DNA of 64,000 nucleotides from Escherichia coli (GTDB taxonomy: Bacteria; Pseudomonadota; Gammaproteobacteria; Enterobacterales; Enterobacteriaceae). This document shows, piece after piece, positions 2,300 to 4,794 of the stretch. The DNA lies in the NCBI RefSeq assembly GCF_011045215.1, contig NZ_CP049201.1, one strand, 5' to 3'. The notes beneath the pieces were generated by a model. The model worked only from the letters and a program-made list of their open reading frames with translations. It did not search any database and was not told where the DNA came from. A program made the position numbers and the translations under genes. Each line of letters opens with the position of its first letter. Within the stretch, counting starts at the first letter, position 1.

Positions 2300-3061
2300 A
2301 TGATTTTAAGTGCATTTTCTCTCGAAGGTAAAGTTGCGGTCGTCACTGGTTGTGATACTGGGCTGGGCCAGGGGATGGCGTTGGGGCTGGCGCAAGCGGG
2401 CTGTGACATTGTTGGCATTAACATCGTTGAACCGACTGAAACCATCGAGCAGGTCACGGCGCTGGGGCGTCGTTTTTTAAGCCTGACCGCCGATCTGCGA
2501 AAGATTGATGGCATTCCTGGACTGCTGGATCGCGCGGTAGCTGAATTTGGTCATATTGATATCCTGGTGAATAACGCCGGATTGATTCGCCGCGAAGACG
2601 CTCTCGAGTTCAGCGAAAAAGACTGGGACGATGTCATGAACCTGAATATCAAGAGCGTATTCTTCATGTCTCAGGCAGCGGCGAAACACTTTATCGCGCA
2701 AGGCAATGGCGGCAAGATTATCAATATCGCGTCAATGCTCTCCTTCCAGGGCGGGATCCGTGTGCCTTCTTATACCGCATCAAAAAGCGGCGTGATGGGT
2801 GTGACGCGATTGATGGCGAACGAATGGGCTAAACACAACATTAATGTTAATGCGATAGCTCCGGGTTACATGGCGACCAACAATACTCAACAACTACGGG
2901 CAGATGAACAACGTAGCGCGGAAATTCTCGACCGCATTCCAGCTGGTCGTTGGGGACTGCCGAGTGACCTGATGGGGCCGATAGTGTTCCTTGCCTCCAG
3001 CGCTTCAGATTATGTGAATGGTTATACCATTGCCGTGGATGGCGGTTGGCTGGCGCGTTAA
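2300..3061 (+). CDS. kduD: 2-dehydro-3-deoxy-D-gluconate 5-dehydrogenase (SDR family)
   Basis: 253-aa ORF with SDR glycine-rich NAD motif (VTGCDTGLG); 29 bp after kduI. Confidence 0.95.
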   Translation: MILSAFSLEGKVAVVTGCDTGLGQGMALGLAQAGCDIVGINIVEPTETIEQVTALGRRFLSLTADLRKIDGIPGLLDRAVAEFGHIDILVNNAGLIRREDALEFSEKDWDDVMNLNIKSVFFMSQAAAKHFIAQGNGGKIINIASMLSFQGGIRVPSYTASKSGVMGVTRLMANEWAKHNINVNAIAPGYMATNNTQQLRADEQRSAEILDRIPAGRWGLPSDLMGPIVFLASSASDYVNGYTIAVDGGWLAR

Positions 3062-3083
3062 TTCATTCTTCTTACTTTTATGA

Positions 3084-3108
3084 CCCTGCCGCATGGCAGG
3101 GTTTTTTA
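3084..3108 (+). terminator. rho-independent terminator after kduD
   Basis: GC hairpin CCCTGCC-GCAT-GGCAGGG followed by T-run. Confidence 0.6.
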
Positions 3109-3249
3109 TACCTGTAGATCATCATAATCCATATCATGGTTATGAAATAATCCATATTAATTATCAATTAATGAACTTTATGAATTTTATCTGCTGTAAA
3201 ATTAGGTGGTTAATAATAATCTCAATAATTCAACTTAATTTGAAAATTG

Positions 3250-3315
3250 GAATATCCATCACATAACGACATGTCGCAGCAATTTAATCCATATTTATGC
3301 TGTTTCCGACCTGAC
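3250..3315 (+). promoter_or_regulatory. araE promoter region with AraC-like half-sites
   Basis: AGCAATTTAATCCATA resembles araI1 (TAGCATTTTTATCCATA); downstream CCGACCTGA resembles araI2; a further ATATCCATCA upstream. Confidence 0.35.
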
Positions 3316-3375
3316 ACCTGCGTGAGTTGTTCACGTATTTTTTCACTATGTCTTACTCTCTGCTGGCAGGAAAAA

Positions 3376-4794
3376 ATGGTTACTATCAATACGGAATCTG
3401 CTTTAACGCCACGTTCTTTGCGGGATACGCGGCGTATGAATATGTTTGTTTCGGTAGCTGCTGCGGTCGCAGGATTGTTATTTGGTCTTGATATCGGCGT
3501 AATCGCCGGAGCGTTGCCGTTCATTACCGATCACTTTGTGCTGACCAGTCGTTTGCAGGAATGGGTGGTTAGTAGCATGATGCTCGGCGCAGCAATTGGT
3601 GCGCTGTTTAATGGTTGGCTGTCGTTCCGCCTGGGTCGTAAATACAGCCTGATGGCGGGGGCCATCCTGTTTGTACTCGGTTCTATAGGGTCCGCTTTTG
3701 CGACCAGCGTAGAGATGTTAATCGCCGCTCGTGTGGTGCTGGGCATTGCTGTCGGGATCGCGTCTTACACCGCTCCTCTGTATCTTTCTGAAATGGCAAG
3801 TGAAAACGTTCGCGGTAAGATGATCAGTATGTACCAGTTGATGGTCACACTCGGCATCGTGCTGGCGTTTTTATCCGATACAGCGTTCAGTTATAGCGGT
3901 AACTGGCGCGCAATGTTGGGGGTTCTTGCTTTACCAGCAGTCCTGCTGATTATTCTGGTGGTCTTCCTGCCAAATAGCCCGCGCTGGCTGGCGGAAAAGG
4001 GGCGTCATATTGAGGCGGAAGAAGTGTTGCGTATGCTGCGCGATACGTCGGAAAAAGCGCGAGAAGAACTCAACGAAATTCGTGAAAGCCTGAAGTTAAA
4101 ACAAGGCGGTTGGGCACTGTTTAAGATCAACCGTAACGTCCGTCGTGCTGTGTTTCTCGGTATGTTGTTGCAGGCGATGCAGCAGTTTACCGGTATGAAC
4201 ATCATCATGTACTATGCGCCGCGTATCTTCAAAATGGCGGGCTTTACGACCACAGAACAACAGATGATTGCGACTCTGGTCGTGGGACTGACCTTTATGT
4301 TCGCGACCTTCATTGCGGTCTTTACGGTAGATAAAGCAGGTCGTAAACCGGCTCTGAAAATTGGTTTCAGCGTGATGGCGTTAGGCACTCTGGTGCTGGG
4401 CTATTGCCTGATGCAGTTTGATAACGGTACGGCTTCCAGTGGCTTGTCCTGGCTCTCTGTTGGCATGACGATGATGTGTATTGCCGGTTATGCGATGAGC
4501 GCCGCGCCAGTGGTGTGGATCCTGTGCTCTGAAATTCAGCCGCTGAAATGCCGCGATTTCGGTATTACCTGTTCGACGACGACAAACTGGGTGTCGAATA
4601 TGATTATCGGCGCGACCTTCCTGACACTGCTTGATAGCATTGGCGCTGCCGGTACGTTCTGGCTCTACACTGCGCTGAACATTGCGTTTGTGGGCATCAC
4701 TTTCTGGCTCATTCCGGAAACCAAAAATGTCACGCTGGAACATATCGAACGCAAACTGATGGCAGGCGAGAAGTTGAGAAATATCGGCGTCTGA
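3376..4794 (+). CDS. araE: arabinose:H+ symporter (MFS sugar porter)
   Basis: ORF track frame 3247..4794; ATG matching the known N-terminus [14 protein letters not shown] gives 472 aa. Confidence 0.95.

Follow-up and report, generated by a model that had tools for sequence, protein, structure and literature searches.

The araE control region of Escherichia coli: a known AraC–CRP module and a conserved distal pair of TCCATA boxes as candidate AraC half-sites

The kduD–araE junction and its orthologues

The window, by which we mean the whole 64,000-nucleotide stretch of E. coli DNA that was analysed, carries kduI (1434–2270), kduD (2300–3061) and araE, which runs from an ATG at 3376 to a stop at 4794, with all three genes on the + strand. 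The araE coding sequence (3376–4794) specifies an arabinose:H+ symporter of 472 aa, as judged from its translation and from the RefSeq annotation of the identical K-12 sequence. The kduD–araE intergenic region is 100% identical to that of K-12 MG1655 (K-12 coordinates are obtained as 2985558 minus the window position), and experiments undertaken with K-12 are therefore directly applicable to the window locus. A 501-bp query found the kduD–araE junction in 5,423 of 5,426 complete E. coli genomes, where the two genes are annotated as kduD and araE. We note that NZ_CP148133.1 (E. coli, 4.64 Mb) aligns with this region only over window positions 3060–3221, the proximal araE control region being replaced or disrupted there, and that this genome possibly represents an engineered K-12 strain in which the araE promoter was exchanged.

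The araE control region is bounded upstream by the intrinsic terminator of kduD (3082–3109, + strand), which was found by a terminator scan and consists of a G+C-rich hairpin (stem 3082–3103) followed by a T run, both of which are kept in most Enterobacteriaceae loci. Two open reading frames that reach into the control region were set aside, as the 515-aa frame from a TTG at 3247 is merely an in-frame upstream extension of araE, and the 100-aa frame on the minus strand (3222–3524) has no support.

Conservation was assessed at two levels. Between genera, we scanned for araE orthologues using one genome per species and retained 80 loci from approximately 30 genera of Enterobacterales, and 75 araE upstream regions were anchored on the proximal AraC half-site I1 (described below); 72 loci of non-Escherichia origin were used for 6-mer counts, in which each E. 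coli intergenic 6-mer was counted at the same I1-anchored position, allowing +/-3 bp. The conserved islands recovered from the 72 loci are the terminator T run, the two halves of the CRP site, the I1 box, the CCTGAC of the second half-site I2, the Shine-Dalgarno region and two distal boxes, and no others. Within Escherichia, we aligned 12 alleles, ten from E. coli (96.6–100% identical to the window) and two from more divergent lineages. The polymorphisms in this alignment spare the AGC and TCCATA boxes, CCTGAC and the –10 hexamer, whereas 45 of the 165 remaining intergenic columns, outside the functional boxes, are variable.

The proximal AraC–CRP module

The first-pass annotation had reported strings resembling araI1 and araI2 upstream of araE, and both are present, the first (AGCAATTTAATCCATA) at 3278–3293 and the second (CCGACCTGA) at 3306–3314. 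The C preceding the first string completes the 17-bp half-site I1 (CAGCAATTTAATCCATA, 3277–3293, + strand), which has an AGC box at 3278–3280 and a TCCATA box at 3288–3293, and the second string lies inside the 17-mer I2 (TGCTGTTTCCGACCTGA, 3298–3314, + strand), a weak half-site and direct repeat of I1 with an ACCTGA box at 3309–3314. I1, the strong, high-affinity half-site of the two, fits the pattern xAGCxxxxxxxTCCATA (PMC11983282) and is the sole exact match to AGCN7TCCATA in the window. I2 keeps T1, T8, CC13–14 and A17 of the shared pattern TAGCxxxTxxxxCCxxA, and in place of AGC it has a degenerate TGC displaced by 1 bp, as expected of a weak I2. From the TCCATA box of I1 (starting at 3288) to the ACCTGA box of I2 (starting at 3309) is exactly 21 bp, which is the canonical AraC spacing and not one incompatible with binding by the dimer, and together I1 and I2 occupy –99 to –62 relative to the araE ATG (3376), in agreement with the 60–125 bp initially proposed. 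The last 4 bp of I2 overlap the –35 hexamer CTGACA. It should be noted that the GC of the 5' box of I2 (3298–3300) lies 8 bp before the 3' box, compared with 7 bp in I1 (3278–3280) and in the I2 of araBAD, and that this 1-bp offset is found in most genera; a 1-bp length difference among I2 sites has been remarked upon before (PMC2893085).

Both half-sites are conserved in sequence and in position. In nearly all loci where the match starts at the araE ATG, I1 is found at –96 to –100, and its TCCATA box is kept in 59 of the 72 non-Escherichia loci. The CCTGAC of I2 is kept in 49/72, with the 5' part of I2 varying between genera, as might be expected for a deliberately weak half-site. Among the 12 Escherichia alleles, the variation in I1 is confined to position 1 (3277) and one spacer base (3282), and I2 varies at 3302, 3303 and 3307.

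Upstream of I1 lies a CRP site (TGGAATATCCATCACA, 3248–3263, no strand assigned) which matches TGTGAN6TCACA at 8 of 10 positions. None of the 75 anchored loci lacks its TCACA, which always lies 13 bp before the I1 17-mer, as it does in araBAD, and in most genera the left half reads TGTAA (4/5). By 6-mer count the left half (AAATTG) is kept in 33/72 and the right half (ATCACA) in 67/72 of the non-Escherichia loci, and in the Escherichia alignment the only variable position is the spacer base 3254. A CRP operator has been placed at ParaE in the same position as in ParaBAD (PMC2893085), and araE is a known CRP target which was recovered by Genomic SELEX as well (PMC3105977).

A further ATCCAT repeat upstream of I1 had also been listed among the AraC half-site-like sequences, and the string does exist at 3254–3259, but it does not amount to a further AraC half-site in register. 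With 33 bp between its box and that of I1, it is off the 21-bp register, and it falls within TGGAATATCCATCACA, where the adjoining TCACA is universal, from which we conclude that ATCCAT belongs to the CRP site. It is improbable that these bases form instead a third AraC half-site (with TCCATC as its box) which lengthens the array upstream and either replaces the CRP site or overlaps and competes with it. Such an arrangement would fit the invariance of TCCA (3255–3258) within the CRP spacer in the core Enterobacteriaceae, and position 2 of the 17-mer at 3244–3260 is an A, as in I1 and O2 (the distal AraC operator of araBAD). However, besides being out of register, the box has C instead of A as its sixth base, and the left half (TGTAA or TGGAA) suits CRP, as does the invariable TCACA on the other side. 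In araBAD the CRP site stands at this same distance from I1 and lacks TCCAT in its spacer, the published CRP operator and target assignments fall here, and the more distant genera lose TCCA yet retain TCACA. We note separately that the invariant TCCA is not demanded by the CRP consensus (the araBAD CRP site has ACGGCG in its spacer), and that it could reflect an overlapping AraC-type box or a constraint on DNA shape.

The core promoter follows directly. The –35 hexamer CTGACA (3311–3316, + strand) is collinear with the CTGACG of araBAD, conserved across genera and invariant in Escherichia. A probable –10 hexamer, TATTTT (3336–3341, + strand), is separated from it by a 19-bp spacer and is invariant among the Escherichia alleles, and a TA(N)TTT hexamer 18–19 bp past CTGAC(A/G) is conserved in other genera. 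The Shine-Dalgarno sequence AGGA of araE (3368–3371, + strand) is likewise invariant in Escherichia, with the region around it (GGCAGGAAAA) kept in 37–48 of the 72 non-Escherichia loci. From the conserved –10 hexamer, we infer a transcription start at approximately 3348, which would place the centres of I2, I1 and the CRP site at about –42, –63 and –92.5, respectively, and this is essentially the geometry of araBAD. A mapped araE start was not found in the genome-wide TSS supplements.

The araE promoter was missed by a generic sigma-70 scan, which returned fewer hits than expected by chance. This is to be anticipated of a promoter with a poor –35 hexamer and a 19-bp spacer (the scan rule allowed 16–18), as is the case in activator-dependent promoters. 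The sole hit of the scan, on the minus strand in A+T-rich DNA, is uninformative. A terminator-like hairpin with a T run at 3319–3337, in the spacer between the –35 and –10 hexamers, was also discounted, as it depends on the K-12 allele and is absent from other genera, and is probably due to chance; most E. coli carry TGTGTGAAT at this position.

Taken alone, the core of I1 is not significant, with AGCN7TCCATA occurring once in the window compared with 0.36 expected, and at least one match found in 32 of 100 shuffled sequences. If this were all, I1 and I2 might be put down to chance resemblance in A+T-rich intergenic DNA, with no regulatory role. The composite site leaves almost no room for this explanation. 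When the 38-bp I1–I2 of araBAD is compared without gaps with the window on both strands (127,926 positions), the araE I1–I2 is the best match with 25 of 38 identities (the next best has 21, and the mean is 9.4 with a standard deviation of 2.7), and nowhere else in the window is the araBAD sequence running from CRP site to –35 hexamer (69 bp) matched as well as by its araE counterpart, with 38/69 identities (z = 5.8). The placement relative to the CRP site, the –35 hexamer and the ATG is exactly that of the araBAD site, the module is kept in both sequence and register in the 75 araE upstream regions from some 30 genera of Enterobacterales with flanks that diverge, and it coincides with a published AraC ChIP target. 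The proximal elements are under purifying selection, both between genera and within Escherichia.

The araE site was reportedly first mapped by Stoner & Schleif in 1983. AraC occupancy, dependence on arabinose and AraC, and dependence on CRP are taken here from the literature. The ChIP/qPCR primers JW073 and JW074 designed for AraC at araE (PMC3738151) map to 3275–3292 and 3353–3370, giving an amplicon (3275–3370) which spans the AraC site, and the same study lists araE among six 'known AraC target regions' and measured AraC association in cells without arabinose. Expression from a ParaE reporter with the complete intergenic region depended on arabinose and was subject to modulation by cAMP, and the ParaE operators were given the same order and position as those of ParaBAD (PMC2893085). 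In another study, araE was described as arabinose-induced and AraC-dependent (PMC11127945).

We are confident (at roughly 95%) that the element flagged in the window is the known proximal regulatory module of araE, made up of an araI-type AraC activator site and a CRP site. The activation of araE by arabinose and AraC, as first suggested from the letters of the sequence, is thus backed by the motifs and their register, by collinearity with araBAD, by conservation and by the literature. This is textbook regulation and there is nothing new in the element itself, but recognising the araE control region does confirm that the window has been correctly annotated. By analogy with araBAD, an AraC dimer would hold I1 and, once arabinose is bound, the second DNA-binding domain would take I2 beside RNA polymerase, activating transcription from around 3348, with CRP centred some 92 bp upstream of the start adding catabolite control. 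Which half-site would be occupied in which state at araE is carried over from araBAD in this scheme.

A distal pair of TCCATA boxes

Two further TCCATA boxes are found between the kduD terminator and the CRP site, both on the + strand and in the orientation of I1. The first is part of U1 (GATCATCATAATCCATA, 3117–3133, with TCCATA at 3128–3133), an araO2-like candidate AraC half-site, and the second of U2 (TTATGAAATAATCCATA, 3140–3156, with TCCATA at 3151–3156), which is a candidate on the strength of its TCCATA box only. The span from U1 to U2 (3117–3156) corresponds to K-12 2982402–2982441. The two boxes are 23 bp apart and lie 160 bp (U1) and 137 bp (U2) upstream of the TCCATA of I1, and they sit within an 11-bp direct repeat (ATAATCCATAT) found at 3124–3134 and 3147–3157. 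Three TCCATA boxes on the same strand within 161 bp would be expected approximately 0.006 times per window. U1 fits the pattern xAxxxxxxxxxTCCATA, which is common to I1 and O2 (PMC11983282), with an AGC box that is not conserved, and U2 has a T at position 2 and so is without the conserved A.

The TCCATA of U1 is kept in 43 of the 72 non-Escherichia loci (+/-3 bp) and that of U2 in 39. As a pair they occur in 56 of the 75 anchored loci when a class in which both lie about 9 bp closer to I1 is included, and the spacing between them is 23 bp in all 56. The pair is conserved in approximately 20 genera and the surrounding DNA is not. The cross-genus consensus for U1 is aaAT....attgTCCATAT, with a core (ATTGTCCATAT) which is the same as that of araO2, and the consensus for U2 is gAAaAATCCATAt. 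When positions are measured from the A of the I1 AGC box, U1 is found at –150 to –152 in the 45 loci of a long class (17 genera) and at –140 to –142 in the 11 loci of a short class (Klebsiella, Kluyvera, Raoultella, Phytobacter and three unclassified Enterobacteriaceae genomes), and in one Raoultella genome a box at –152 occurs together with one at –119. Franconibacter, Cedecea, Buttiauxella and Mangrovibacter have a single TCCATA box at –140 to –144, and no distal box was found in the I1-anchored loci of Erwinia, Mixta, Rosenbergiella and Pluralibacter.

Between genera, the DNA that separates the distal boxes from the CRP site is close to random (42% ungapped identity, 76% A+T), and its length is nevertheless fixed to +/-1 bp within each class. 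Within Escherichia, none of the 34 columns of the U1 and U2 17-mers is variable, and elsewhere in the distal region 31 of 104 columns vary (Fisher one-sided p = 4e-5, which is indicative only as the Escherichia sequences are related). Apart from the proximal module, which has long been studied, the comparison of some 30 genera reveals selection at just one place in the 265-bp control region, the U1/U2 pair. We found no description of distal araE boxes, and no binding or deletion results for them, in the literature searched under araE looping, araO2 and the literal sequences, with the older primary papers on araE falling outside that search.

Two variations near U2 are also recorded here. E. 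coli EC7518 (locus L097) carries a natural 7-bp deletion of 3155–3161, between short repeats, which restores TCCATAT and leaves U2 intact with the distal–proximal spacing shortened by 7 bp. A clade-specific second CRP-like site (e.g. aaTGAcgcgcaTCACA) is found approximately 20–40 bp downstream of the second distal box in Enterobacter, Lelliottia and Leclercia (loci L025, L028–L031, L034, L037, L039–L040, L043–L044, L050–L051 and L054–L056), and is absent from E. coli.

As a positive control, we anchored the araC–araB intergenic regions of Klebsiella, Enterobacter, Cronobacter and Buttiauxella in the same way as those of araE. In five genera, including E. coli, the TCCATA of O2 lies at –201/–202 from I1, and in the four genera with a readable O2 a core of the aATTGTCCATAt type is kept and the 5' half of the site varies. 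U1 and U2 have the same evolutionary signature as this proven operator, being found in the orientation of I1, more than 100 bp upstream, with a distance to I1 that is conserved and an intervening sequence that is not. The most economical explanation would therefore seem to be an O2-like operator or pair of operators. It is possible, and we hold it as a tentative view, that U1 and U2 allow arabinose-free AraC to form a loop from I1 which keeps araE off in the absence of arabinose, and such a loop would account for the presence of AraC at araE in cells without arabinose. The fuller proposal, that the pair is a functional and previously undescribed looping operator for AraC and forms a second natural AraC loop found across the Enterobacteriaceae, we put forward with somewhat greater reserve.

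The geometry of the boxes gives mixed indications. The distance to the I1 box is 160–161 bp (U1) and 137–138 bp (U2) in the long class and 151–152 and 128–129 bp in the short class, compared with 211 bp from O2 to I1. At 10.5 bp per turn, 137–138 bp is in helical phase with 211 bp, but 9 bp, and not 10–11, separate the two classes, and no integer number of turns is consistent for both. The spacing of 23 bp between U1 and U2 also tells against looping by AraC, as all the half-site pairs found at araBAD and araFGH are spaced at 21 bp, and so does the loss of the conserved A from position 2 of U2.

This departure from 21 bp, together with the missing AGC boxes, might indicate that U1 and U2 are real and selected sites which are bound by a protein other than AraC, or which serve the 3' end of kduD, and have nothing to do with AraC control. 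In many genera the boxes lie only about 10–20 bp past the kduD terminator, as would suit a role in kduD. We think this somewhat unlikely, as the conserved hexamer is exactly the TCCATA box of AraC in the orientation of I1, the U1 consensus (ATTGTCCATAT) equals the araO2 core, and the proven operator O2 has evolved in the same manner. A role tied to the terminator also sits poorly with Kluyvera, where the boxes hold their distance to I1 though the terminator is about 45 bp further away, and with Buttiauxella, Mangrovibacter, Cedecea and Franconibacter, where TCCATA is found at –140 to –144 without a terminator context upstream.

If AraC does bind U1 and U2, then looping would not be peculiar to araBAD and would be a general way in which the regulon stays off. 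The threshold for all-or-none induction in arabinose systems is fixed by the basal level of the transporter, and if the loop is real, the basal level of araE would be under its control.

Comparison with araBAD and araFGH

Alignment with the araBAD and araFGH sites, which the first-pass annotation had proposed as a check, bears out the identity of the proximal half-sites. The araE I1 is identical to the I1 of araBAD at 14 of 17 positions and I2 to its counterpart at 11 of 17, and the araE I1 also shares 15 of 17 positions with CAGCAGATTAATCCATA, the strongest of the half-sites upstream of araFGH, whose own partner is spaced at 21 bp. The two control regions of araE and araBAD share the order CRP, I1, I2 and –35 hexamer, the 21-bp register between I1 and I2, the overlap between I2 and a CTGAC(A/G) –35 hexamer, the 13 bp between TCACA and I1, and the start of the I1 17-mer at –99 from the ATG. 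They differ in that araE has neither a divergent araC gene nor an O1 pair, has a promoter spacer of 19 bp rather than 18 bp and a probable –10 hexamer of TATTTT rather than TACTGT, and has the 5' TGC box of I2 offset by 1 bp, unlike araBAD.

The distal boxes of araE resemble the O2 of araBAD in having the orientation of I1, a U1 consensus which is the O2 core, and a distance to I1 conserved to +/-1 bp. In contrast, araE has two boxes, 23 bp apart and 160 and 137 bp from the I1 box, whereas araBAD has one at 211 bp, and looping from O2 has been established by experiment, whereas U1 and U2 are candidates from sequence comparison.

As a rule, ara promoters carry arrays of several AraC sites, and the region upstream of araF illustrates this. 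In K-12 (L083), several AraC-like half-sites are found between –284 and –144 from the araF ATG, on the strand opposite to araF, namely pairs with 21-bp spacing at –263/–284 and –188/–209 and an unpaired site at –144. Both araFGH and araE answer to the same regulators, AraC and CRP. However, the AraC pairs of araFGH are placed at a greater distance from their gene and on the other strand, and there it is the CRP site that adjoins the –35 hexamer (PMC2893085). In its layout, araE follows araBAD and not araFGH.
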